A stretch of 32,000 nt of DNA from Patescibacteria group bacterium (GCA_041662745.1 JBAZRV010000007.1:2028-34027); one strand, 5' to 3'. Positions 12,193 to 23,882 are shown, counted from the first letter of the stretch. Program-made: numbers and translations. The notes: generated by a model not told the origin, from the letters alone.

Positions 12193-13377
12193 TTATTTGA
12201 CAATCTTGGTTACAACACCGGCGCCGACAGTATGGCCGCCTTCACGAATGGCGAATTTCATCTTTTCTTCCATGGCCACGGTCTTGCCCAATTTGACGAT
12301 GACGTTAACGGTGTCGCCAGGCATAACCATTTCTGTTCCGGCCGGCAAAGTTATTTCACCGGTTACATCAGTTGTTCTGACGTAGAACTGCGGTTTATAG
12401 CCATTGAAAAACGGCTTGTGGCGTCCGCCTTCTTCCTTGGACAGGATGTAGACTTCGGCTTCAAACTCGGAATGCGGAGTGATGGAACCTGGTTTGGCCA
12501 AAACTTGACCGCGTTCAACTTCTTCTTTCTTAGTGCCGCGCAAGAGGACACCGGCATTATCACCGGCTCTGCCCTCATCCAGGGATTTATTAAACATTTC
12601 GATGCCGGTAACGACGGTTTTCTTAGTATCGGCCAAACCGACAATTTCTACTTCTTCGTTAATTTTGATTATACCGCGTTCAATTCTGCCGGTAACGACG
12701 GTGCCGCGGCCTTCAATAGAGAAAACATCCTCAATCGGCATTAGGAAAGGCTGATCGGTGGCGCGTTGCGGCTCGGGGATGTAAGTGTCTAAAGCATTCA
12801 TTAATTCCATGATGCAATCGGCATCGGGACCGCTCGGATTCTCCAAAGCCTTCAAAGCAGAACCCTTGATAATCGGAGTGGTGTCGCCGGGATAGTTATA
12901 TTTGGTCAATAACTCACGGATTTCTCCTTCAACCAAATCAATCATTTCCGGATCGGCCTGATCAACTTTGTTAATGAAAACGACGATATGAGGTACGCCG
13001 ACTTGGTAAGCCAAAAGAATATGCTCTCTGGTCTGAGGCATGGGGCCGTCGGTAGCAGCCACGACCAAAATAGCTCCATCCATCTGGGCGGCGCCAGTAA
13101 TCATGTTCTTGATGTAATCAGCATGGCCTGGGCAATCCACGTGAGCGTAGTGGCGCTTTTCTGTTTCGTATTCTACGTGAGCGGTAGCAATAGTGATACC
13201 GCGAGCCTTCTCTTCGGGGGCGGCATCAATCTGATCGACTGATTTATGCTGGGCCGTAAAGCCGCGAGCAGCCAGGGTGGCCAAAATAGCCGCGGTCAAG
13301 GTAGTCTTGCCGTGGTCGACGTGACCAATGGTACCCACATTAACGTGGGGCTTGCTTCTGTTAAATGCTTCTGCCAT
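12193..13377 (-). CDS. tuf: elongation factor Tu
   Basis: Trimmed to the ATG at 13377 ([27 protein letters not shown]…). G1-G4 motifs are present and an AAGGA lies about 10 nt upstream. Confidence 0.97.
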
Positions 13378-13476
13378 GTTATTTATCCTTTTTGAGTTCC
13401 TCGCCCTCAAATCCGGGGAGTTTTAGCCAGAACTCAATATTATTTAGTATTATTTATAATTTTTATTAGCTTGACT

Positions 13477-13504
13477 ATTATATCACAAAAACAAAAAAAA
13501 TCAA
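13477..13504 (-). promoter_or_regulatory. tuf promoter TTGATT-N16-TGaTATAAT
   Basis: -35 at 13504..13499, extended -10 at 13482..13477, about 95 nt upstream of the tuf ATG. Confidence 0.6.
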
Positions 13505-13549
13505 GAAGGAGCGGGATTATATTTTTTCCACAGTTACCGCACAGCCGAT

Positions 13550-13906
13550 TTAACCGTTTACCGGCTCAAAGTAGTACCGATCTTCATCTTGTATGTCTCG
13601 ATCATTTTGGCTAAATTCAGATAAAATCTCTTCATCAGGGACAACTCCGATATCTCTGGCAAAATTATACTGATCCACTGACAATTCCCTTAGCTCTTGA
13701 TTATCCTTCCAAATAGCGATATCACGATTTATTTTATCTAAAAGTTCATCTTCTGTCAAGCCCGAGACGCCAGATTTGCCTAAAATTAAATCTTCATAAT
13801 CAGCGACAGTCATAATAACATAGCCCGGTTCGCCGTGCTCATCCAAAACAATGGCCTTATCACCTGTTTTTTTGAGTAAATTTACTAATTTAGTAAGATT
13901 GGGCAT
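13550..13906 (-). CDS. hypothetical protein; N-terminus resembles the Phd/YefM antitoxin fold; acidic C-terminal half
   Basis: 118 aa. KAIVLDEHGEPGYVIMTVADYEDLI matches the usual Phd/YefM pattern of strand, turn, strand, then xxYExL. No toxin ORF is adjacent. Confidence 0.6.
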   Translation of the reverse strand: MPNLTKLVNLLKKTGDKAIVLDEHGEPGYVIMTVADYEDLILGKSGVSGLTEDELLDKINRDIAIWKDNQELRELSVDQYNFARDIGVVPDEEILSEFSQNDRDIQDEDRYYFEPVNG

Positions 13907-14062
13907 ATTAATTGCTGAGTTGATAAATTAGCGGCCAAATACTGATTAACCGCTTTAACTGGCAATAATTAGCGTTGATTTAATAATATTATAGCAAAAA
14001 CAGGACTTTGTAAAGTGGTAATGATTGAGCTGGCGGGTGTGGATAACTATTTATTAAAAACA

Positions 14063-14091
14063 TTGACAAAATCATAAGTATTTGATATAAT
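14063..14091 (+). promoter_or_regulatory. consensus sigma70-type promoter TTGACA-N17-TGaTATAAT
   Basis: TTGACA at 14063..14068, a 17-nt spacer, TATAAT at 14086..14091. It precedes a leader of about 110 nt and the 234-aa ORF. Confidence 0.7.
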
Positions 14092-14209
14092 ACGATGTTA
14101 ATCGTCCCTGTCGGGCGGTTGGCTGAGGCCGAAACCAAAATCGTTTATGTGGACGATGGCGGTTCTATCTGTTCCTTATTAAAGTCCCAAGGACAAGGAG
14201 TACCGGAGA

Positions 14210-14914
14210 ATGAAAGAGTATGGACCACGCCGTGTCTTACATGTTAGATTCATAAACGATGGCGAAGGAGATATAAAGGATTTCAACAACAATGGCTCCG
14301 TCCTACGCATCGCGGATGAAACCTTCCTGACGGCCATGAAAACCCTGGGCGAAAAACTTGGCCGAGCCGATCTGGACGCCCTGAGATGTGATGATGGTAG
14401 CGTATTGCTAACCGACCCGCCGTGTTTTGGCGGAACAATAAAAGTGGCGGAAAGATGCCTAACCGAAGCCGACATTTTTTTCCAGAAAATACCGCGCATT
14501 CCCAAGGCGGAAGAACTGTCGGAGTATATTGATAACATCAACGGTTGTCGGCATTTGTTCAAGCCGCTGCCGTTCGGGTACGGCTATCGGTACGACTACG
14601 CCTGTCTGGAAATCGGCGTACAACTGGGAACCGTCGAAACTATGGGGGCGCTAGCTACCATATACCGGGTCAGACGCTACCGCCAAGAGTTTGTTGGCGA
14701 TAAAAATCAAATCGTTGCGGGGGAAATAAAATACGGTCACCGCAACGCTCCGCGTGATTTGATTGATGTCTTCGGTTGTTGCCTCCTACTTTGTCAGGGC
14801 AACATAAAAAAAGCCCAACAAATGAGTGGGAGTTCTTACGTTAAGTGGGGAATTCATGACCTCACAAAAAAGGCTTTTAACATGATGCGCGAGGAGGCTG
14901 CCAAGACCGCCTAA
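14210..14914 (+). CDS. hypothetical cytoplasmic protein, 234 aa, Cys-rich, no family recognised
   Basis: Framed by a consensus promoter (14063..14091), an AAGGAG 9 nt before the ATG, and a strong terminator (14931..14966). No TM segment or signal peptide. Confidence 0.75.
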   Translation: MKEYGPRRVLHVRFINDGEGDIKDFNNNGSVLRIADETFLTAMKTLGEKLGRADLDALRCDDGSVLLTDPPCFGGTIKVAERCLTEADIFFQKIPRIPKAEELSEYIDNINGCRHLFKPLPFGYGYRYDYACLEIGVQLGTVETMGALATIYRVRRYRQEFVGDKNQIVAGEIKYGHRNAPRDLIDVFGCCLLLCQGNIKKAQQMSGSSYVKWGIHDLTKKAFNMMREEAAKTA

Positions 14915-14930
14915 TCGCCAAGTACAAAAT

Positions 14931-14966
14931 CCCCGCACTGCTGACGCAGGGCGGGGGTTCTTTTTT
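14931..14966. terminator. intrinsic terminator between the convergent 234-aa ORF and valS
   Basis: CCCCGCACTGC-TGAC-GCAGGGCGGGG (11 bp, one mismatch) followed by TTCTTTTTT on the plus strand. Confidence 0.75.
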
Positions 14967-14983
14967 ATTTGAAAAATGATAAG

Positions 14984-17692
14984 TTATAGGCCCTTAGCTT
15001 GACCGCGTAACTTCGCAAGCTTCTCTTCGGCAGCAGTCAATTTTTCTTTTTCTTTTTCCACTACCGCCTGAGGCGCATTTTTTACAAATTCCTCATTACC
15101 CATCTTGCCTTGCAAACCGCTTAAGTATTTTTCCGTCTCCGTAATTTCTTTAGCTAAACGCTCCTTTTCTGCTCCAATGTCAATCAGTCCGGTCAGGACT
15201 AAATAAATTTCCGCGCCCTCAATAACCTTGACAGCGGAATTTTCCGGCTTAGCGCCGGCGAAGCTAATCGTCAAATTCTCCAAACGCGCCAGGCGCTTGA
15301 TAATTTCCGCTTGAGATTCCAATAATTCCTTTTTATCGCTAATAATTATCACCTTAACCAGTTTGACCGGTTCAATTTTATTTTCCGCGCGCAGATTCCT
15401 AATTGCCGTAACTAATTCTTTGACAAGCCCAAAATCATTATTGCCTTCAATGCCGGATAAATGCGCGATCTCCTTGATCTTATCCCATAATTTTACTTCT
15501 CTGCCAACCGGCCATGGCTCCACCATCAACATCCTCCCCGCCGCCAGTTTGTCCCAGATCTCTTCAGTGACAAACGGCATATAAGGATGCCAAAGCTTCA
15601 GCAAGGTTTGCAGGGTATATAATAGTATTTCCTCTTTGTTGACTTTAGATTTTTGGCTTTCAATTTTATAAACTTCAAGATACCAATCGGCAAAATCGCT
15701 CCAAGTAAAATCATACAAAATCTCACTGGCCAAAGAGAATTCACAATTATCCAACTGTTTGGTGACTTCAGCGATTTTGACGCTTAGCCTGTCCAACAGC
15801 CAGTTATCGGCTAAGGTAATCGGTTCCGGCATTGTTTCCACTAACCTCGGATTTTCCACGACAGATAAGATATAGCGGGAAATATTCCAAAATTTATTAA
15901 CAAAGTTCCTGGCCGCTGCCACTTTTTCTTCATAAAACCTGGCATCGTTGCCGGCAGTCGTGCCTTTAATCAAGGATAAACGCAAGGCGTCAGTGCCGTA
16001 CTGATCAATTATTTCCAGCGGATCCAAACCATTGCCCAATGATTTGGAAAATTTGCGGCCGTCTTTGGCGCGCAGAATGCCGTGGATATAAACATTCTCA
16101 AACGGAATATCGTCCAGAGCGTAGGTGGTCATTAGTATCATTCTGGCCATCCAAAAAAACAAAATCTCATAGCCCATCTGCATCCAAGTGGTCGGATGAT
16201 ATTTTTTTAAATCAGCGGTTTGCTCCGGCCAACCTAAAGTGGAAAAAGTCCAAGCGCCCGAAGAAAACCAGGTATCCAAAGTATCCTCGTCCTGGCGCAC
16301 CTGACCGCTGCCGCATTTTTCGCATTTATCCACTGATTTATCGGAATAAAATATCTCGCCGCAATCGTCACAATACCAGATCGGAATGCGATGCCCCCAC
16401 CAAATCTGACGCGAAATGCACCAATCGCGCAGGTTATCAATCCAATACAAGTAAGTGTCGTGGAATCTTTCTGGCGTAATTTTAATAATTTTATTCTTAT
16501 CATGATTATGGCCGACGGTTACGGCTTCACGCATCAAATCCTTCAAGGTTTTGTTGCGGCCGGGAATCTGCTTTTTCACGTCCACAAACCATTGATCCAT
16601 GGGAAGCGCCTCAACTACATCGCCGAAACGATCCGATTTGCCCACATTATGTTCAACTTCCTCTTCTTTAATGTATAACTCATTGCTCTTCAGCCAAGCC
16701 ACGAATTTTTCCCGCGCTTCGTTAACGGTCAGGCCTTCGTAATCTTTGCCCGCGGCCGGAAGCATGCGGCCGTCACGGCCGATAACCGGAATAATGCCGA
16801 TATCTTTGTTTTGCTCATACATCTCAAAATCAATCTGGCTGTGCGCCGGCGTTACGCCGACCGCGCCCGTGCCGTAGTCAATGTCAACATTCTTATCGGC
16901 AATAATCGTAATCACCAGCGGCTTGGCCGCGCCCACATCCGCCGTAAATTTCTGGCCGATGTATTGCTTATACCTGTCATCTTTGGGACTAACCGCTACG
17001 GCCGTATCACCCAATTTTGTTTCCGGACGAGTCGTGGCGATAGCAATAGGAAAATCCTTGCTGTATTTAAAGGTATAGACCGTGGTCTTAACCGTTTCAT
17101 AAACTAACTCGTCATCGGAACAAGTGGATTGCCCTTTGACCGACCAATTGACTACGCGATAGCCGCGATAAATCAAGCCATCGGCGAACATCCTGCGAAA
17201 CAGTTCATTGACTGCCTTGGTGCGCGGTTCGTCAAAAGTATAAGCCAAGCGCGACCAATCGCAAGACGTGCCCATTTTTTTTATCTGAGACAGAATGACT
17301 GATTTTTTTTCCTCGGCATACTCACGGATTTTTTTCAATAATTCTTCGCGACCCAACTCCTGACGCGGATGCTTGATGCCTTGTTTCTTGAGTTCATCCT
17401 CCACCCTGGCCTGAGTAGCCACGGCCGCATGATCGGTGCCGGGCACCAGTAACGCCCGCTTGCCCTTAAGCCGCTGATAGCGCAACTCAATATCCATAAT
17501 GGAATTCTCCAAGGCATGCCCCAAATGCAGGACGCCGGTAACATTGGGCGGCGGCATGGAAACGACAAACTTTTCCGGCCGATTGCCGGGCAGATTGTCG
17601 GGATTAAAATAACCGGACTCCTCCCATTTGCGGTAGATTCCGTCTTCGACCGATTTGGCGTCATACGCCTTGTCCAATTCGATTTTTAGCAT
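14984..17692 (-). CDS. valS: valyl-tRNA synthetase
   Basis: 902 aa. HIGH-type PPPNVTGVLHLGHA, KMSKS-type KFSKSLGN, editing domain, C-terminal coiled coil. Confidence 0.96.
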   Translation of the reverse strand: MLKIELDKAYDAKSVEDGIYRKWEESGYFNPDNLPGNRPEKFVVSMPPPNVTGVLHLGHALENSIMDIELRYQRLKGKRALLVPGTDHAAVATQARVEDELKKQGIKHPRQELGREELLKKIREYAEEKKSVILSQIKKMGTSCDWSRLAYTFDEPRTKAVNELFRRMFADGLIYRGYRVVNWSVKGQSTCSDDELVYETVKTTVYTFKYSKDFPIAIATTRPETKLGDTAVAVSPKDDRYKQYIGQKFTADVGAAKPLVITIIADKNVDIDYGTGAVGVTPAHSQIDFEMYEQNKDIGIIPVIGRDGRMLPAAGKDYEGLTVNEAREKFVAWLKSNELYIKEEEVEHNVGKSDRFGDVVEALPMDQWFVDVKKQIPGRNKTLKDLMREAVTVGHNHDKNKIIKITPERFHDTYLYWIDNLRDWCISRQIWWGHRIPIWYCDDCGEIFYSDKSVDKCEKCGSGQVRQDEDTLDTWFSSGAWTFSTLGWPEQTADLKKYHPTTWMQMGYEILFFWMARMILMTTYALDDIPFENVYIHGILRAKDGRKFSKSLGNGLDPLEIIDQYGTDALRLSLIKGTTAGNDARFYEEKVAAARNFVNKFWNISRYILSVVENPRLVETMPEPITLADNWLLDRLSVKIAEVTKQLDNCEFSLASEILYDFTWSDFADWYLEVYKIESQKSKVNKEEILLYTLQTLLKLWHPYMPFVTEEIWDKLAAGRMLMVEPWPVGREVKLWDKIKEIAHLSGIEGNNDFGLVKELVTAIRNLRAENKIEPVKLVKVIIISDKKELLESQAEIIKRLARLENLTISFAGAKPENSAVKVIEGAEIYLVLTGLIDIGAEKERLAKEITETEKYLSGLQGKMGNEEFVKNAPQAVVEKEKEKLTAAEEKLAKLRGQAKGL

Positions 17693-17751
17693 ACAGGTAA
17701 TGCTTTAATCCTACTAAAATATGCCATTTTTTTCAAGTTTTTTACTTATCC

Positions 17752-17780
17752 TTGACAAATCCCGAGGGGTTTGATACCAT
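17752..17780 (+). promoter_or_regulatory. promoter TTGACA-N17-TGaTACCAT for the 101-aa ORF
   Basis: Hexamers and spacing read directly. Confidence 0.5.
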
Positions 17781-17866
17781 AAGCCAATATTAGAACTTTA
17801 AAAAACCAAGAATAAACAGGTAGTCGCCAATAGAAAAATTACCAAACCAACAAGGAGGACTAAACA

Positions 17867-18172
17867 ATGGACAAAGCCGATTGCGAACGACTACAACAAA
17901 TCATTGAAACGCTTGCCGAACTGCCTAAGGTTGGAGAAAAGGTTTTGCTGTATTATCACGCAAGCAAACACTCAGTAAGCTCGTTTCAAATGCAAGAAAT
18001 CTCGCATATTTCAGGGGATTGTAATGGTATATACTTTTTTTATATCAATAACAACCAGCAATTTCTAGTTTTTGATCAGACTTCCAAATTATGGCATTTA
18101 GCTGGGTTAGCCAGTCGATCAATTTCGGTTATCTGGGGTGAAGAATTGAAACCCGACTTTAATCCTGATTAA
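17867..18172 (+). CDS. hypothetical protein, 101 aa, no family recognised
   Basis: AAGGAGG 8 nt upstream of the ATG, a TTGACA-N17-TACCAT promoter, and an 8-bp hairpin with T-tract terminator downstream. Confidence 0.7.
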   Translation: MDKADCERLQQIIETLAELPKVGEKVLLYYHASKHSVSSFQMQEISHISGDCNGIYFFYINNNQQFLVFDQTSKLWHLAGLASRSISVIWGEELKPDFNPD

Positions 18173-18189
18173 ATCAAGTACCTTTCCCG

Positions 18190-18223
18190 CCCTCGGACAC
18201 TGCGATCCGAGGGTTTTATTTTC
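18190..18223 (+). terminator. intrinsic terminator of the 101-aa ORF
   Basis: CCCTCGGA-N8-TCCGAGGG followed by TTTTATTTT. Confidence 0.7.
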
Positions 18224-18229
18224 AAACAA

Positions 18230-18262
18230 AAATACTCCGACATCTGCCGGAGTATTTTTTAT
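18230..18262 (-). terminator. intrinsic terminator of fusA
   Basis: AAATACTCCG-N8-CGGAGTATTT, flanked by A and T runs, so it can work in both directions. Confidence 0.65.
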
Positions 18263-18271
18263 TTGATATTT

Positions 18272-20404
18272 TTAGCGTCTTTCTTCTTTCTTGCCTTGAC
18301 GACCTTCAATAATCTTCATTTCCACATTTTTCGGTACTTCCATGTATCTGGAAAATTCCATGGAATAATTGGCGCGGCCCTGAGTCATGGAACGCACAAT
18401 GGTGGCGTAGCCGAACATTTCGGCCAGCGGCACCTGGGCGCTGATAACCTTAACAGCCGAAGCGCCGACACCGCGGTCTTCCATCGAGCTAATGACGGCG
18501 CGGCGCGCGTTCAAATCACCGATAACATCGCCCATAAACTGTTCCGGGGTGGTTACTTCCACTTTCATTACCGGTTCCAAAATAACCGGAGTGGCGCGCT
18601 TAGCGGCATCCTGCAAAGCCATGGAGGCGGCGATTTTAAAGGCAGCTTCAGACGAATCAACTTCATGGTAAGAACCGTCATAAACGGTAACCTTAACGTC
18701 AATCAAGGGATAGCCAGCCAGAATACCACGTTCGGTCGCCTCTTTGGCGCCCTTCTCAATCGGCTTAATGAATTCACGGGGCACGGCGCCGCCTTTGATT
18801 TCGTCAGCAAAGACAAATCCCTGATTCGGTTCAGACGGTTCCACCCGCAACCAGCAATGGCCGTATTGGCCGCGACCGCCGGATTGGCGGATATATTTGC
18901 CTTCGGCTTCCGCCTTGCCTTTGATGGTTTCGCGATAAGCGACTTGAGGCTTGCCAATATTGGCTTCCACCTTAAATTCACGCTTCATGCGATCCACGAT
19001 AATATCCAAATGCAATTCGCCCATGCCGGAAATAATGGTCTGACCAGTTTCCTCATCGGTGTGAACGCGGAAAGTCGGATCCTCTTCAGCCAGTTTAGAC
19101 AAAGCCAAAGCCATCTTTTCTTGGTCGGCTTTGGTTTTTGGCTCAATCGCAATATCAATGACCGGATCGGGAAATTTAATTGATTCCAAAAGTATGGGGA
19201 AAGACGGATCAGACAAAGTATTGCCGGTAGTGACGTCTTTAATACCGACTAAAGCGGCGATTTCTCCGGCATACACCTCGTCAACTTCTTCGCGCGAGTT
19301 AGCATGCATGCGCAAAATGCGGCCGATGCGTTCTTTATTGCCGGTTTTATTGTTAATAATATAGGAACCTGATTTCAAAATACCGGAATACACGCGATAA
19401 AACACCAATTTTCCAACAAACGGATCGGTGGCAATCTTAAACGCCAAACCGGCCAAAGGCGCATCATCGGAAACAACTAAGGGTATCTCTTTTGTTTCAT
19501 CATCAACACTATGGCCGATGGGAGCCGGGACCTCCAAGGGGTTGGGCAAATATTCGGCAACGGCATTAAGCAAAAATTGCACGCCCTTATTCTTCAGGGC
19601 GCTGCCGCATAATATCGGCACGAGTTTATTGGCGATAGTGGCTTTTCTTAAGGCCCTCTTCAAATCAATCACCGGCACTTCTTCACCGGCCAGATATTTT
19701 TCCATCAAAGTTTCGTCAGTTTCCACAATGGCCTCCACTAATTTGTGGCGATACTCCTTGGCTCTCTCTAGTTCGTCAGCCGGAACATCAGTGATCTCCC
19801 ATTTGGTTCCCAAATCATCGGAATAAACTTCCGCCTTCATTTCAAACAAATCAATAATGCCGGTGAAAGTATCGGCGGCGCCGATCGGCAGTTGAATCGG
19901 ATGGGCATGGGGAGTCAGTCGATCATAAATTGATTTAAGATCATTATAAAAGTTGGCGCCCATGCGATCCATTTTATTGACGAAACCAAGCTTAGGCACA
20001 TGATACTTCTCTGATTGGCGCCAAACGGTTTCCGATTGCGGTTCCACGCCGGCTACGCCGTCAAACACAATGACGCCGCCGTCCAAGACGCGCAAAGAAC
20101 GCTCCACTTCAGCAGTGAAATCCACGTGGCCCGGGGTATCAATCAAATTGATCTGGATATCTTGACCGCCCAGCCAGTCGGCGTTAGGCCAATAACAAGT
20201 GGTAGCGGCCGAGGTAATGGTGATACCGCGTTCGCGTTCTTGCTCCATCCAATCCATAGTGGCTTCGCCCTCATGGACTTCACCGATTTTATGTTTCTTT
20301 CCGGTATAAAAAAGAATGCGCTCGGATACGGTGGTTTTGCCGGCGTCAATATGAGCGATAATACCGATGTTTCTAATTCTTTCTAAAGGTGTTTTACGGG
20401 GCAT
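18272..20404 (-). CDS. fusA: elongation factor G
   Basis: 710 aa, …[16 protein letters not shown]…DTPGHVDF…, full five-domain length. Confidence 0.97.
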
Positions 20405-20450
20405 ACTGGTTAATTACAAATTACGAATTAATAATTACAAATTTTTACTG

Positions 20451-20515
20451 ATAAATATTTAAATTTTATAAAACTTTTTGGAAGAGGCGAAAGCACGAGC
20501 TGTCGCCTCGAAAAA
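20451..20515 (-). repeat. 65-nt cassette 3' flank, copy 1 (downstream of 20528..20827)
   Basis: ATAAATATTTAAATTTTATAAAACTTTTTGGAAGAGGCGAAAGCACGAGCTGTCGCCTCGAAAAA matches 21300..21364 at 63 of 65 positions. Confidence 0.9.
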
Positions 20516-20516
20516 G
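20463..20516 (-). terminator. terminator-like extended hairpin inside flank copy 1
   Basis: Minus strand: CUUUUU-c-GAGGCGA-loop-UCGCCUC-uucc-AAAAAG, then UUUUAUAAAAUUU. Confidence 0.55.
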
Positions 20517-20527
20517 AAAAAAATAAA

Positions 20528-20827
20528 TCAACTTCCACCAGCTAAATAATACAATTTCAATGAGTCCATTTCTTCTAATTCCGTCTCGCTCATACCCTTG
20601 ACCGCTTTAATAAGTTTCCTTGCCCAAGCCAAGGCTTCTTTCTTTGATTTGAAATTGTGGTTTGTCTCAAATAAGATCTCGCCGTGATACTTAATGCATG
20701 CATCAAACTTACCTTCATGACGAGTACGACGACTTGACGCTGATGTGTCTGGCCCCTCAGATTCACAATGAAGATCTTTCTTGGGTTTCGACTTAATAGT
20801 CATTAAAGCAAACATACTTAACATCAT
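20528..20827 (-). CDS. small hypothetical protein, cassette B gene 2 (paralog family, type a)
   Basis: Start moved to ATGATG at 20827 (MMLSMFALMTIK…) with AAGGAG 6 nt upstream; the ORF-track start at 20851 is a TTG. Shares the motif NHNFKSKKEALAWARKLIKAV and its N-terminus with 21703..22050. Confidence 0.75.
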   Translation of the reverse strand: MMLSMFALMTIKSKPKKDLHCESEGPDTSASSRRTRHEGKFDACIKYHGEILFETNHNFKSKKEALAWARKLIKAVKGMSETELEEMDSLKLYYLAGGS

Positions 20828-20853
20828 GGCTTTCTCCTTTTTGGCTGTCAATA

Positions 20854-21183
20854 TTAAGGCAATCTTAGAATAATTACTCTATTCTGTTTATCGGGATCAA
20901 CCTGGATAGCTCTGCCCTTACTAAAAGTATGAGATTTCGGCGGTAATCCTTTTAATAGATCCAATAACCTATTGCCCCACTCAGTTGCTTCTTTAGGAGT
21001 TTCAAATACGGCTTCGGTATGTAAAATGGGATGATCAAAATTATCATTCAGGCATAAACAGGACGAAAATCTAAACTTAACTTCTCCGCCATCATGGCCA
21101 ATGAACCGACCAAATCTTACCGTCAAAGAATCCAATTCTGATTTGCTAATACTAACCCCCAGTTCAGCCTGACTAACTTCCAT
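20854..21183 (-). CDS. small hypothetical protein, cassette B gene 1 (paralog family, type b)
   Basis: 109 aa with GGGAGGG 7 nt upstream. Motif EAVFETPKEATEWGNRLLDLL. Confidence 0.75.
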   Translation of the reverse strand: MEVSQAELGVSISKSELDSLTVRFGRFIGHDGGEVKFRFSSCLCLNDNFDHPILHTEAVFETPKEATEWGNRLLDLLKGLPPKSHTFSKGRAIQVDPDKQNRVIILRLP

Positions 21184-21200
21184 TGCCTTTCCCTCCCATC

Positions 21201-21232
21201 AGTTGATTTTTTCTTTTAAGGTTCAAAGTTAC
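21201..21232 (-). repeat. conserved cassette 5' leader, copy B
   Basis: AGTTGATTTTTTCTTTTAAGGTTCAAAGTTAC aligns with 22066..22097 with 2 substitutions and 1 indel. Confidence 0.8.
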
Positions 21233-21299
21233 GAGTGATTTGCTATTCCCACCAAGAATCGGCACAATATTTCATGCATTCGCGTTTTGAATACAAACA

Positions 21300-21364
21300 A
21301 TAAATATTTAAATTTTATAAAACTTTTTGGAAGAGGCGAAAGCACGAACTGTCGCCTCAAAAAA
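21300..21364 (-). repeat. 65-nt cassette 3' flank, copy 2 (downstream of 21365..21706)
   Basis: Differs from copy 1 at two positions: 21348 is A where copy 1 has G, and 21359 is A where copy 1 has G. Confidence 0.9.
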
Positions 21365-21365
21365 T
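21312..21365 (-). terminator. terminator-like extended hairpin inside flank copy 2
   Basis: Same structure as copy 1, offset by +849 nt. Confidence 0.55.
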
Positions 21366-21706
21366 CAACCTATATTTAATTCGACAAACTCCTTACCGTT
21401 TTCCTTGCTTAATTGGGATAAAATCCAAATTAAATTAGAGCATTTGTCACCCCAATCCGTGGCTTTTTCCCAAGAATCAAAAACTGATTTTGTTTCCAGT
21501 ATGGTAGTGGTCTGAATTGGCAATTTTCTACAACTTTCTTTGCGCTTGTCATCACAAATACCGCCAGGACAAACGCCTTCACATTGATAAATACGAACTC
21601 GATATTTGGCTTGACGCTTGTTTTTTTTAGAACAGCCAATTTGTTTTACCTCATAATGCAATGGCTGATCAGCGGTGAAGCTTATGGTTCCGGAAAATCC
21701 GATCAT
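21365..21706 (-). CDS. small hypothetical protein, cassette A gene 2 (paralog family, type b, with a Cys-rich loop)
   Basis: 113 aa. ATGA overlap with the upstream gene and AAGGAG 7 nt upstream. Motif KSVFDSWEKATDWGDKCSNLI. Loop CEGVCPGGICDDKRKESC. Confidence 0.75.
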   Translation of the reverse strand: MIGFSGTISFTADQPLHYEVKQIGCSKKNKRQAKYRVRIYQCEGVCPGGICDDKRKESCRKLPIQTTTILETKSVFDSWEKATDWGDKCSNLIWILSQLSKENGKEFVELNIG

Positions 21707-22050
21707 GGTTTTTCTCCTTGTTCGGCTTCGGCCAACTTTTCTTCCAAAGCAACAACTTCATTTATAATCTTTTCCATTCTGGCCCATTTCTCCGCAGGAA
21801 TATTCTCTTCAAATAATTCCACTTCCGGTTCCGTTCTAATCGCATTAACAAATCTTTCTGCCCAAGATATAGCCTGTTCTGCCGAATCGAAAATATCATT
21901 AGTGTTGAGAACTGGCCGATGGTATTCACCATAGTTATAAAGATTTATCCAAGCGACAAACTTGCCCCCCTTCTTTGACGGCCCACCAGCATCGCACTTA
22001 ACATCATCACCACGATTCTGAATAACTAGAAAATCAATCATAGACAGCAT
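21703..22050 (-). CDS. small hypothetical protein, cassette A gene 1 (paralog family, type a)
   Basis: 115 aa with AAGGAG 7 nt upstream. Motif NDIFDSAEQAISWAERFVNAI. C-terminal helical acidic tail. Confidence 0.75.
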   Translation of the reverse strand: MLSMIDFLVIQNRGDDVKCDAGGPSKKGGKFVAWINLYNYGEYHRPVLNTNDIFDSAEQAISWAERFVNAIRTEPEVELFEENIPAEKWARMEKIINEVVALEEKLAEAEQGEKP

Positions 22051-22065
22051 ATTTCTTCTCCTTCT

Positions 22066-22097
22066 AGTTGATTTTTTGTTTTAAAGGTTCAAATTAC
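22066..22097 (-). repeat. conserved cassette 5' leader, copy A
   Basis: AGTTGATTTTTTGTTTTAAAGGTTCAAATTAC, directly upstream of the AAGGAG of 21703..22050. Confidence 0.8.
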
Positions 22098-22120
22098 TTA
22101 TTACTTGTTACGTATTACTT
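22093..22120 (-). repeat. heptamer array ATTACTT ATTACTT GTTACGT ATTACTT abutting the rpsG stop
   Basis: The sense strand reads TAA-AAGTAAT-ACGTAAC-AAGTAAT-AAGTAAT: four TAA spaced 7 nt apart, hitting every frame. Confidence 0.75.
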
Positions 22121-22588
22121 TTATCTGGAAAAATGCGCAAAGGCCCGGTTGGCTTCGGCCATTCTGTAAGTGTCTTGCTTCTTCTTGATGGCAGTACCCT
22201 CGCTATTGTAAGCGGCGATCAATTCTTCTGCCAACTTAACGGCCATGCGCCGGCCTCTTTTGGCCTTGGCGGCGCCGATAATCCAACGGCAGCCCAAAGT
22301 ATAACTGCGGGAAGGACGGACAGCCATCGGCACTTGATAGTTGGCGCCACCAACGCGGCGACCCTTGATTTCCACGGTCGGGGCGGCATTCTTGATGGCC
22401 GTATCAAACACAACCAAAGGATCAACTTTTGTCTTATCGGAAATAATTTCTAAGGCTTCGTAAACAATACCCTTGGCGACGGACTTTTTGCCGCGCTCCA
22501 TGATATAATTGATAAATTTAGCGATATCCTCGCGGTTATATTTCTCATCGGGAGCAATCGCTCTTTTTGTTGCTGGTTTACCTCTCAT
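22121..22588 (-). CDS. rpsG: 30S ribosomal protein S7
   Basis: 155 aa with uS7 sequence (…VEIKGRRVGGANYQVPMAVRP…). Confidence 0.96.
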   Translation of the reverse strand: MRGKPATKRAIAPDEKYNREDIAKFINYIMERGKKSVAKGIVYEALEIISDKTKVDPLVVFDTAIKNAAPTVEIKGRRVGGANYQVPMAVRPSRSYTLGCRWIIGAAKAKRGRRMAVKLAEELIAAYNSEGTAIKKKQDTYRMAEANRAFAHFSR

Positions 22589-22696: not shown

Positions 22697-23125
22697 TTAT
22701 TTAGCGGCCTTCTTCTCTTTCTTCATTCCATACAAGCTACGACCGCGCTTGCGATTAGCCACGCCGGCGGAATCATAGACACCGCGGACAATGTGATAAC
22801 GGACACCGGGCAAATCCTTGACTCTGCCGCCACGCACCATAACAATAGAGTGCTCTTGCAGATTATGGCCAATGCCGGGGATATAAGCAGTAACCTCCTG
22901 GCCGTTAGACAAACGGACACGGGCAATTTTACGCAAAGCGGAGTTCGGCTTTTTCGGCGTAGTGGTTCTTACAACCGTGCACACGCCACGCTTAAAGGGA
23001 TTGCCTTTCTGCATGGTGTGTTTACGGCGATGCAAACTGTCCAAAGTAGTCTGGATATCAGGCGTTTTTGATTTTGCAACTTTGGGCTTGCGACCCTTCT
23101 TAAGTAATTGGTTTATTGTAGGCAT
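22697..23125 (-). CDS. rpsL: 30S ribosomal protein S12 (with an insertion of about 12 aa near the N-terminus)
   Basis: 142 aa, [12 protein letters not shown]…[12 protein letters not shown]…[14 protein letters not shown]. Confidence 0.96.
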
Positions 23126-23378: not shown

Positions 23379-23407
23379 ATTTTAACCGATTTTAGCTCAA
23401 AAGTCAA
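23379..23407 (-). promoter_or_regulatory. distal promoter candidate TTGACT-N17-TAAAAT
   Basis: -35 at 23407..23402 and -10 at 23384..23379. It lies upstream of the hairpin at 23285..23309. Confidence 0.5.
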
Positions 23408-23423
23408 CGCCAAAAATCAACAA

Positions 23424-23882
23424 TTAACCGGCTATGACCTTTTCATAAACAAAAGCCGCTTGGTGTCCATACAGACTTTTAATTCGGCCTCGATTCCTAA
23501 ATCCCAATTTTTTATAAAAATGCAGAGTTTTCCTTTCGTCTGCGGCCGCATCAACGAATAAGCTTTCACCAGGCTTTAATCTCTTAACCACGGCATTGAC
23601 TAATTTGGTGCCAATGCCCAAGCCGCGGTATTTAGGACTGACAATCAGAATACGCAACCAATTCTGCACAATATCTTGGCTGACATAAATAATGCCGCCA
23701 GCCAGATCCTCGCCTGCTAACGCTACAAAACTTAAACCCTTTTGCTTATACGCTTCCCTCAGATACTCCTTAGTCAACCACTCATCCTTCGGCCACTCCG
23801 CCTTACCCAATTTCAATAACTTAACCAAATCGGTTGCGCGCATCTTTCTTATGGCCACTTTTGATTTTAAAGCTGATGGCAT
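23424..23882 (-). CDS. GNAT family N-acetyltransferase (RimI-like)
   Basis: 152 aa. LIVSPKYRGLGIGTKLVNAVV is the acetyl-CoA-binding Q/RxxGxG/A motif. Confidence 0.8.
   Translation of the reverse strand: MPSALKSKVAIRKMRATDLVKLLKLGKAEWPKDEWLTKEYLREAYKQKGLSFVALAGEDLAGGIIYVSQDIVQNWLRILIVSPKYRGLGIGTKLVNAVVKRLKPGESLFVDAAADERKTLHFYKKLGFRNRGRIKSLYGHQAAFVYEKVIAG

Follow-up and report, generated by a model that had tools for sequence, protein, structure and literature searches.

Few bacterial gene arrangements are as strongly conserved as the str operon, which routinely serves as an anchor for phylogeny and synteny. In the Patescibacteria metagenome-assembled genome (MAG) studied here, a 1.7-kb minus-strand block (positions 20451–22120 of the 32,000-nt stretch of DNA that was analysed, hereafter the window) fills the junction between two genes of this operon, rpsG and fusA, with four small open reading frames (ORFs). 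Are these genes part of the translation machinery that surrounds them, or does the junction accommodate something else? We see about an even chance that the block represents one version of an accessory cassette slot that is confined to one clade and varies between strains, and not a set of core translation genes. Variable accessory hotspots are a known concept; the conserved frame around each cassette is unusual and the protein family is new, and a literature search for such a cassette arrangement in a Patescibacteria str operon returned nothing.

Four small genes of one family lie between rpsG and fusA

The minus-strand order is rpsL (22697–23125), rpsG (22121–22588), the four small ORFs and fusA (18272–20404). 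Reading ORFs and Shine-Dalgarno (SD) sites reproduced the coordinates, sizes, ATGA overlap and SDs given by a first-pass annotation made from the sequence alone, with the genes arranged as two two-gene cassettes in the order P1a–P2a, then P2b–P1b:

22121–22588, minus strand: rpsG (S7; PF00177), 5′ anchor of the slot
21703–22050, minus strand: P1a, 115 aa, subtype 1, cassette A gene 1; AAGGAG 7 nt 5′ of the ATG
21365–21706, minus strand: P2a, 113 aa, subtype 2 with a four-Cys insert, cassette A gene 2
20854–21183, minus strand: P2b, 109 aa, subtype 2, cassette B gene 1
20528–20827, minus strand: P1b, 99 aa counted from the ATG, subtype 1, cassette B gene 2
18272–20404, minus strand: fusA (EF-G), 3′ anchor of the slot; EF-G domains; no SD before the ATG

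The start of P2a overlaps the end of P1a by ATGA, an AAGGAG or GGGAGG SD lies 6–8 nt 5′ of the ATG in all four ORFs, and an alternative TTG start at 20851 would extend P1b to 107 aa. GC content is 38–41% in the cassettes, compared with 49% in rpsG and fusA. Both NCBI and JGI annotate the four ORFs (WC668_04745 to 04760) as hypothetical proteins of a Patescibacteria MAG.

The first-pass annotation had taken the four products for one divergent family with two subtypes, the first and last genes (P1) and the middle two (P2), and both points were borne out by BLASTP, hhalign and reciprocal hidden Markov models (HMMs). P1a and P1b are 31% identical across 89 aa (BLASTP E=9e-13), and the matches of P2a to P2b (E=2e-6) and of P1a to P2a (E=2e-5) are confined to a 25-residue core. 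With homologs added, the P1 and P2 profiles align over 37 columns that comprise the last strand and the helix (hhalign 95.8%, E=7.6e-9); among the 11,922 ORFs of all fetched DNA, a P1-only HMM recovers P2b (E=8e-6) and a P2-only HMM recovers P1 members (E=3e-6 to 2e-3). All four ORFs are real protein-coding genes, members of a single family that evolves fast and falls into two subtypes. These profile alignments show P1 and P2 to have a common core, predicted as a β-strand plus a helix, while their N-terminal halves have diverged and P2a-type members carry a four-Cys insert.

No meaningful match of any P1 or P2 member was found in Pfam, NCBIfam, PHROGs, PADLOC or PDB sequence profiles, in agreement with the earlier remark that the family has no described counterpart, and the PADLOC anti-phage defence models gave no match at E≤1. 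Nor did these searches produce a profile match to a well-characterised housekeeping family, which the annotation had named as evidence against its own view. The narrow-clade family is new and without annotation, and adds to the large pool of unknown genes in candidate-phyla-radiation genomes.

An AlphaFold model of P1a, built from only 8 subtype-1 sequences, reached a pLDDT of 88.7 and contains the elements H4–12, E17–22, E31–39, E42–49, H57–72 and H86–112, the last being a long C-terminal helix. Subtype 1 is thus predicted to fold as an alpha-beta-beta-beta-alpha core plus a C-terminal helix, and we make no family assignment; the structure model covers P1, and a fold shared by P1 and P2 rests on sequence-profile homology. 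A Foldseek search of the P1a model against the PDB returned nothing significant (best E=0.28, TM 0.2–0.4), and the best structural matches in BFVD are small uncharacterised phage proteins (E=0.04–0.2).

Two family resemblances raised by the annotation found no support. For DUF1508/YegP, 0 of 12 members match at E≤10, and the model has a single alpha-beta-beta-beta-alpha unit with no tandem beta-beta-alpha; for HicB, again 0 of 12 match the Pfam models at E≤10, and there is neither an NCBIfam match nor a HicA-like partner. In both cases, the likeness amounts to a short strand followed by a helix of F-x-S-x-x-E-A appearance, and whereas HicB belongs to an obligate two-gene module with HicA, P1 and P2 each occur as the sole slot gene in relatives. 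A type II toxin-antitoxin pair was also rejected, because P1 and P2 are homologous to one another and each is found alone.

Slot content varies between closely related strains

A full HMMER scan of 1.84 billion representatives returned only six further small proteins, all of subtype 1, and its long matches were repeats or NUMOD-like motifs. The P1 homologs are P0008, P0009, P0019, P0016, P0015 and P0018; P2a has homologs in P0006 (57% identical) and in a gene of locus L095 (38% identical), and P0005 in locus L002 is a near-ortholog of P2b (about 90% identical). Apart from the proteins of the window itself, a word-indexed protein search yielded P0005 and P0006 alone, to which a 12-sequence alignment query added none.

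Nearly all of these genes occupy the same position. P0008, P0009, P0019 and P0016 sit directly between rpsG and fusA, in loci that share the wider order CARDB, MBL, response regulator, NDK, M50, rpsL, rpsG, slot, fusA; P0005 and the L095 gene, which represents a third P2 type, also lie between rpsG and fusA; and P0006 immediately precedes fusA, its contig breaking off short of any rpsG. Among about 120 fetched loci, no P1 or P2 member was found elsewhere except in L091 (P0015). The family and its frame are limited to one Buchananbacteria-related clade, in which S7 is at least about 78% identical.

P0015 (L091:84-1173, on a 1.4-kb contig) is the only P1 homolog outside the str slot and lies among five packed ORFs of 56–86 aa. 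These overlap or abut, and they include a putative membrane peptide, a Cys-rich protein and a weakly Lar-like zinc-ribbon protein (Pfam E=0.001, sub-threshold), in a layout resembling a phage early-gene region. Searches of IMG/VR with P1a and P0015 found no relatives, and a phage origin of the system was rejected given this absence, a single chance match of the hairpin pattern in viral DNA and only weak matches to phage integrase N-termini.

Even where the flanking proteins are 97–100% identical, the content of the slot varies. The fusA DNA of L095 is 97.7% identical to that of the window and its S7 and EF-G parts are protein-identical, and its gap of about 800 nt holds one P2 gene that is only 38% identical to P2a. 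L087 and L112 (S7 97%, EF-G 97%) each carry a single P1 that is 53–54% identical to P1a, compared with 76–93% for the neighbouring proteins. Since the P1 of L090 (55%, with S7 at 78%) matches P1a as closely as that of L087 does, the divergence of P1 does not follow the genome tree. In L002 (S7 95%, EF-G 97%), an unrelated 90-aa coiled-coil/Cys-motif protein is followed by the P2b ortholog and then by a remnant of the P1b site. Elsewhere, the slot contains only the coiled-coil/Cys protein (L006), P1 and then the coiled-coil/Cys protein (L092), only a repeat element (L007), or just 18–51 nt (L009 and L010); P1 is alone in L087, L088 and L090, and P2 is alone in L095. A look-up of relatives based on S12 gave no new slot variants.

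This distribution is not that of a core component, which would be present in all clade members and evolve slowly: P1 is lacking in L002, L006 and L007–L010, and is 53% identical where S7 is 97% identical. The functional link to EF-G and S7 that the first-pass annotation had implied must be qualified in this light, as near-identical strains can do without the genes or carry one in place of another.

The remnant at the P1b site (L002:10321-10400) consists of about 70 nt ending in ...GCTAAGCAGTTGATTTTTCGAGG and looks like what a deletion left behind, with the 3′ repeat and hairpin kept. The coiled-coil/Cys proteins (72–93 aa; L002:9546-9818, L006:6587-6868 and L092:673-891) occupy the same slot within the same repeat-plus-hairpin frame; they have an N-terminal coiled coil and then a Cys-x-His...Cys-x-x-Cys arrangement, and gave no significant match in Pfam, PHROG or PADLOC.

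The P2b/P0005 pair has a dN/dS of 0.285. Its dS of 0.144 lies far below the values for rpsL, rpsG and fusA (0.52–0.92) and for NDK and M50 (0.88–1.68), which makes the cassette much younger than its surroundings and indicates exchange between lineages. Substitution patterns thus indicate that the P2b cassette is under purifying selection and was probably exchanged recently between lineages. Neutral evolution, which the annotation had listed among the findings that would speak against it, is not what this sole measurable pair displays.

A repeat-plus-hairpin frame encloses each cassette

Both cassettes in the window are bordered by the same elements, which are listed here in minus-strand order:

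22066–22078, minus strand: 5′ inverted repeat of cassette A (CAAAAAATCAACT), 2 nt upstream of the SD
21358–21370, minus strand: 3′ inverted repeat of cassette A (GGTTGATTTTTTG), including the P2a stop TGA
21333–21358, minus strand: GC hairpin A (GAGGCGA...TCGCCTC), fold −16.8 kcal/mol, z=−2.9
21300–21332, minus strand: AT-rich tail A (TTCCAAAAAGTTTTATAAAATTTAAATATTTAT), within a 65-nt direct repeat; conserved in L002 and L087
21229–21299, minus strand: inter-cassette spacer, with a 37-nt remnant of a ~125-nt long-hairpin element resembling a miniature inverted-repeat transposable element (MITE)
21201–21213, minus strand: 5′ inverted repeat of cassette B (GAAAAAATCAACT)
20521–20533, minus strand: 3′ inverted repeat of cassette B (AGTTGATTTATTT), including the P1b stop TGA
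20484–20509, minus strand: GC hairpin B, fold −18.6 kcal/mol, z=−3.6
20451–20483, minus strand: AT-rich tail B, conserved, followed by the fusA upstream region

A 65-nt repeat closes both cassettes, and its two copies (20451–20515 and 21300–21364) are 97% identical. Each copy contains a GC hairpin, which is present twice in the window, at the cassette ends only. The 5′ motif, (C/G)AAAAAATCAAC(C/T), precedes the SD by 2–4 nt in the window cassettes and by 1–6 nt in most relatives. The 3′ motif, (G/A)GTTGATTTTTT, is its reverse complement and overlaps or follows the stop codon, its TGA often being the stop itself.

Across 11 cassettes, the 13-nt repeat pair is 90% complementary, with 5 positions (11 cells) changed on both sides, and slid controls reach only 29–56%. 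None of 500 shuffles attained four of the five pairing measures, and 35 of 500 attained the number of pairs changed on both sides. The clearest covariation is in L002, where a 5′ AAATAATCAATAAG is matched by a 3′ CTTATTGATTATTT, and G-U type pairs are tolerated. The hairpin stem has 10 positions, about 9 of which form standard pairs in the window. It is 88% paired, as opposed to 43–60% when slid, and 2 pairs are changed on both sides; relatives carry the compensatory variants GAGGTGG/CCGCCTC, GAGGCGGAA/TTCCGCCTC and GGGGCG/CGCCCC. Folds range from −17 to −21 kcal/mol, with z-scores of −2.9 to −5.0 for four of five modules and −1.9 for L088, and the AT-rich tail after the stem begins with TTCCAA.

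The same frame is found whether the insert is P1, P2, a two-gene unit or the unrelated coiled-coil/Cys gene. A metagenome pattern search gave 21 matches, of which 4 contain the complete module, all in str context, and the remaining 17 are chance matches in unrelated DNA. A dispersed mobile element was rejected on these grounds, the complete module being restricted to the str context and the hairpin occurring only twice in the window.

The first-pass description of the cassettes as terminator-bounded stands in so far as there are two bordered cassettes with real GC hairpins, and falls short on terminator status, as a canonical U-tract is missing. In the window, the stem stands between a U-run on its 5′ side and an A-run on its 3′ side, with UUCCAAAAAG directly 3′ of it; in L006, L090, L092 and L095, a U-run begins about 9 nt 3′ of the stem. 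A terminator scan of the window did not call the cassette hairpins, and Rfam and tRNA scans of the window gave no match.

Structured RNAs or attenuators between rpsG and fusA of the str operon have been described (PMC2965389), and the hairpin resembles them as a conserved stem-loop with compensatory changes at this junction. It differs in that it accompanies each inserted cassette and is absent from the empty gaps of L009 and L010, and the window stem-loop has neither a canonical U-tract nor an Rfam family match.

As further observations on repeats at this locus, a GGTTGATTTTT at the end of a GNAT gene (23412–23421) was considered as a third cassette end and judged coincidental, since it has no hairpin and lies at the rpsL promoter. 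The long-hairpin element is ~125 nt, self-complementary and MITE-like, with a minimum free energy of −37 to −50 kcal/mol. The window spacer remnant is identical to the L095 element at 29 of 37 positions in a local alignment whose score 0 of 500 shuffles reach. Two inverted copies (625–790 and 1240–1400) flank the single P2 cassette of L095, a solo copy fills the rpsG–fusA gap of L007 (L007:4040-4200), and others are found downstream of fusA in L006 (L006:9330-9403) and at L092:962-1031.

Filled rpsG–fusA gaps are common, with unrelated cargo

The wider occurrence of such gaps was surveyed in 80 species-representative genomes fetched via S7, mostly Patescibacteria, in 72 of which both genes were located. 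The gap is ≤100 nt in 38 of the 72, >200 nt in 28 and >500 nt in 16 (about 22%), so a filled gap is common in this sample, and no P1 or P2 relative is encoded in the gaps of the surveyed species. Among the cargo are a ParE toxin preceded by a small ORF (L031:2426-2945), a DUF5678 protein with a retropepsin-like protein (L052:7313-9169), a PDDEXK_3 nuclease-family protein (L028:1238-1627), a Cas2/PaaX-like protein (L068:6982-7482), a tRNA-binding-domain protein (L012:3164-3496), and membrane or secreted proteins. The annotation had regarded the filled gap as unusual; filling as such is not, and it is the specific family and frame that are clade-restricted.

The locus resembles accessory-gene hotspots between core genes in the variable content of near-identical strains, the conserved flanks and the younger, low-GC cassette, and also in the toxin-antitoxin-type and nuclease-type cargo found at the same position in other Patescibacteria. 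Unlike such hotspots, the slot lies inside the str operon directly before fusA, takes only 70–116-aa proteins, puts the same repeat-plus-hairpin frame on every insert, and has no integrase or tRNA gene.

A proposed mode of operation and the points against it

One good promoter match lies upstream of the cassettes, and it is conserved in L002:

23379–23407, minus strand: candidate str-operon promoter, TTGACT-17 nt-TAAAAT, about 250 nt upstream of rpsL

A promoter scan extending to position 23400 found no convincing promoter inside the block. On the minus strand between rpsG and fusA it called one site, which falls across the SD and start codons of P1b and was dismissed as spurious, and promoter-like matches in the AT-rich tails (TTCCAA ... 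TAATAT or TATAAT) are weak and inconsistent between loci. With the only good upstream promoter placed before rpsL, we infer that transcription reading through the operon from there expresses the cassettes, whose genes have strong SDs of their own for translation.

On the transcript, the repeat-plus-hairpin frame would then close off or stabilise the stretch that holds the cassette and serve processing or partial insulation or attenuation; a role at the RNA level is suggested because the frame is placed by translation signals, tolerates G-U pairs and is found at a single locus. Such a frame may be what makes an insert upstream of fusA tolerable for fusA expression. On the DNA side, the repeated borders together with the conserved rpsG and fusA flanks would offer homology for unequal crossing-over and inter-strain recombination, by which cassettes could be duplicated, deleted and swapped, the array P1a–P2a, P2b–P1b being one outcome.

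As for the proteins, fast and allelic divergence, presence and absence between strains, constraint on the protein and paralog arrays form a pattern typical of conflict or strain-specific genes. They may be dispensable accessory binding proteins under diversifying or frequency-dependent selection, most plausibly acting in conflict or in a strain-specific interaction (with phage, toxin or at the host-cell interface), with the operon used for strong constitutive expression.

Several points weigh against this account. About ten lineages carry the system, several of them on contigs under 4 kb; the argument for exchange comes from one gene pair with 19 substitutions; and no recombination intermediate or empty frame was seen among the loci. 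The AU-rich 13-nt repeat would pair only weakly as a long-range RNA helix. The searches returned no signature of defence, toxin or immunity, so that it is the evolutionary pattern that would mark the proteins as conflict-related. The hairpins could instead be efficient terminators and the AT-rich tails promoters. Finally, P1 keeps to exactly this slot across lineages that differ by ~20% in S7, and the module is found nowhere else, which could reflect a functional tie to S7, S12 or EF-G.

The rpsG–fusA junction of one Patescibacteria clade is a place of within-species gene turnover with a defined repeated architecture, for which binning, synteny-based annotation and marker-gene analyses of such genomes should allow. 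It may also offer a compact natural example of foreign small genes made compatible with a highly expressed essential operon, with the frame as the candidate for that role, and the evolutionary pattern of the new small-protein family points to strain-level conflict or interaction.

Alternative explanations

The main rival to the cassette-slot reading is that P1 and P2 are lineage-specific translation accessory factors that attach to the ribosome, to S7/S12 or to EF-G, perhaps to modulate or protect them or in the manner of hibernation factors, an explanation that we regard as possible though doubtful. Their location would then follow from co-expression with the partners, and expansion into paralogs would supply specialised forms. 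P1 is indeed found exactly in the rpsG–fusA slot in at least five lineages with S7 identities of 78–100%, and outside it once; the genes have strong SDs and lie on the same strand as the operon; and one other lineage carries a tRNA-binding-domain protein in its rpsG–fusA gap. The P1a model has the same alpha-beta-beta-beta-alpha element order as the double-stranded RNA-binding domain (dsRBD), and many of the weak Foldseek PDB matches are dsRBDs or ribosome hibernation factors. However, none of these fold matches is significant, and P1 and P2 lack a dsrm HMM match and a conserved basic motif at the helix N-terminus. Their pI varies from 4.6 to 8.9, most members being acidic or neutral, which is unusual for rRNA binders and would count against a conserved nucleic-acid-binding role. 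Moreover, P1 is missing from the close relatives L002, L095, L006 and L007–L010, an unrelated protein can replace it, and P1 has diverged far more than any neighbouring gene, in a pattern that departs from the S7 tree. A precedent for a small accessory gene in this operon is ybxF (rplGB), a non-essential L7Ae-type protein encoded at the head of the B. subtilis str operon and co-transcribed with rpsL-rpsG-fusA. This gene lies upstream of rpsL in one copy, is conserved throughout the Firmicutes and encodes a member of a known RNA-binding family, whereas P1 and P2 are variable, multi-copy, fast-evolving and without family assignment.

An intermediate possibility, which we consider unlikely, would join the two accounts in a previously undescribed, locus-specific cassette system whose proteins act directly on S12, S7 or EF-G. 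They might, for example, protect or modulate EF-G or the ribosome in a strain-specific way when phages or competitors attack, while the RNA frame ties their expression to that of fusA. The interest of the locus would rise sharply if P1 and P2 did bind EF-G or the ribosome.

Three weak signals are consistent in pointing to another possible identity, the arm-type/AP2-like N-domain of tyrosine integrases. P1b matches Pfam Arm-DNA-bind_4 at E=0.001 (19.0 bits, below the 22.3 cut-off), a model matched sub-threshold by 2 of 12 family members. In a tblastn search of GenBank phages, P1a hits the N-termini of Roseobacter phage tyrosine integrases (E=0.02), and P0008 hits the same N-termini at E about 1. 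The P1 profile aligns with the phage integrase N-terminus over 47 columns (hhalign 89.9%) along GKF.A....G.YHRP..FD(S/T).EQAI.W. The likeness lies in three strands followed by a helix with a motif of the F-[DT]-[ST]-x-E-[EQ]-A-x-x-W type, and a three-stranded sheet on a helix is present in the P1a model, where the beta-beta-beta-alpha core is predicted with high confidence. Since the cassette borders are conserved inverted repeats, P1 and P2 might be small DNA-binding proteins acting on the slot repeats, either as regulators or as architectural or directionality factors of recombination; we hold this to be distinctly unlikely. All of the sequence signals remain under family thresholds, and the phage integrase N-terminus is itself without a Pfam assignment and has only three relatives in the phage collection. 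AP2 or integrase N-domains are absent from both the PDB sequence and the Foldseek matches. In contrast to arm-type domains, P1 and P2 are stand-alone proteins with extra N- and C-terminal helices, are mostly acidic or neutral and have no link to a recombinase, none being encoded within ±10 kb.

A system of site-specific cassettes, either integron-like or a MITE that carries cargo, in which a recombinase or transposase supplied in trans moves the cassettes as units, is in our judgement quite improbable. Three unrelated or distantly related gene types do share the repeat-plus-hairpin frame, the cassette ends covary like terminal inverted repeats, cassette number and order vary between strains, and the L095 cassette is flanked by inverted copies of the long-hairpin element, which also occurs alone in L007 and elsewhere. 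Integron cassettes are likewise short, apparently promoterless head-to-tail ORFs, each followed by a structured imperfect palindrome with inverted repeats, in arrays of variable length and order. Against movement as units, no integrase or transposase is encoded nearby, the complete module occurs at one locus only, and the tolerated G-U type pairs suit RNA better than DNA. Conservation also runs past the repeats on both sides, which argues that the repeats are not the termini of an element. An integron in particular was rejected: IntI is lacking (the neighbours are rpsL, rpsG, fusA, the M50 peptidase and NDK), one repeat lies 5′ of the ORF by the SD, and the order across the intergenic element, GTTGATTTTTT ... 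AAAAAATCAAC (GTT...AAC), is the inverse of the attC layout, RYYYAAC...GTTRRRY.

That the ORFs are decaying or non-functional fillers, either remnants of old insertions or de novo ORFs, is very improbable: their narrow distribution, absence from close relatives and low GC, and the apparent loss of P1b in L002 with a short remnant left, would fit, but full-length intact homologs with conserved core residues exist in several lineages, the dN/dS is 0.29, AlphaFold predicts a confident fold from a shallow alignment, and a strong SD is kept before every gene.

Other features of the surrounding str operon

Unlike the cassette genes with their strong SDs, fusA has no SD and is instead preceded by a conserved TAATTCGTAATT(T/C) motif, in a region read at window 20405–20450 (minus strand), L002:10460-10507, L005:680-720, L087:6470-6497 and L088:6375-6395. 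Heptamer repeats of the GTAAT type are frequent after rpsG and before fusA, and the 142-nt gap of L008 contains five ACGAAT(C) repeats plus inverted copies.

Upstream of the slot, an untranslated leader of ~250 nt extends down to rpsL at 23125. It is well conserved, nearly identical in the window and L002, and could be a leader or attenuator, with no Rfam match at the gathering score. Between the M50 peptidase gene and the rpsL promoter lies a GNAT acetyltransferase gene (Acetyltransf_1, E=2e-13; 23424–23882, minus strand). As it is absent at the matching position in L002, L087 and L088, it represents another strain-specific insertion beside the str operon.

On the other side, fusA and tuf are apart (window 12193–18272, minus strand), with valS (14984–17692), small ORFs and a plus-strand 234-aa ORF between them, and the fusA–tuf interval of L088 differs and is without valS. 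Taken together with the filled rpsG–fusA gap, this separation shows that the str operon is interrupted at more than one junction in the clade.

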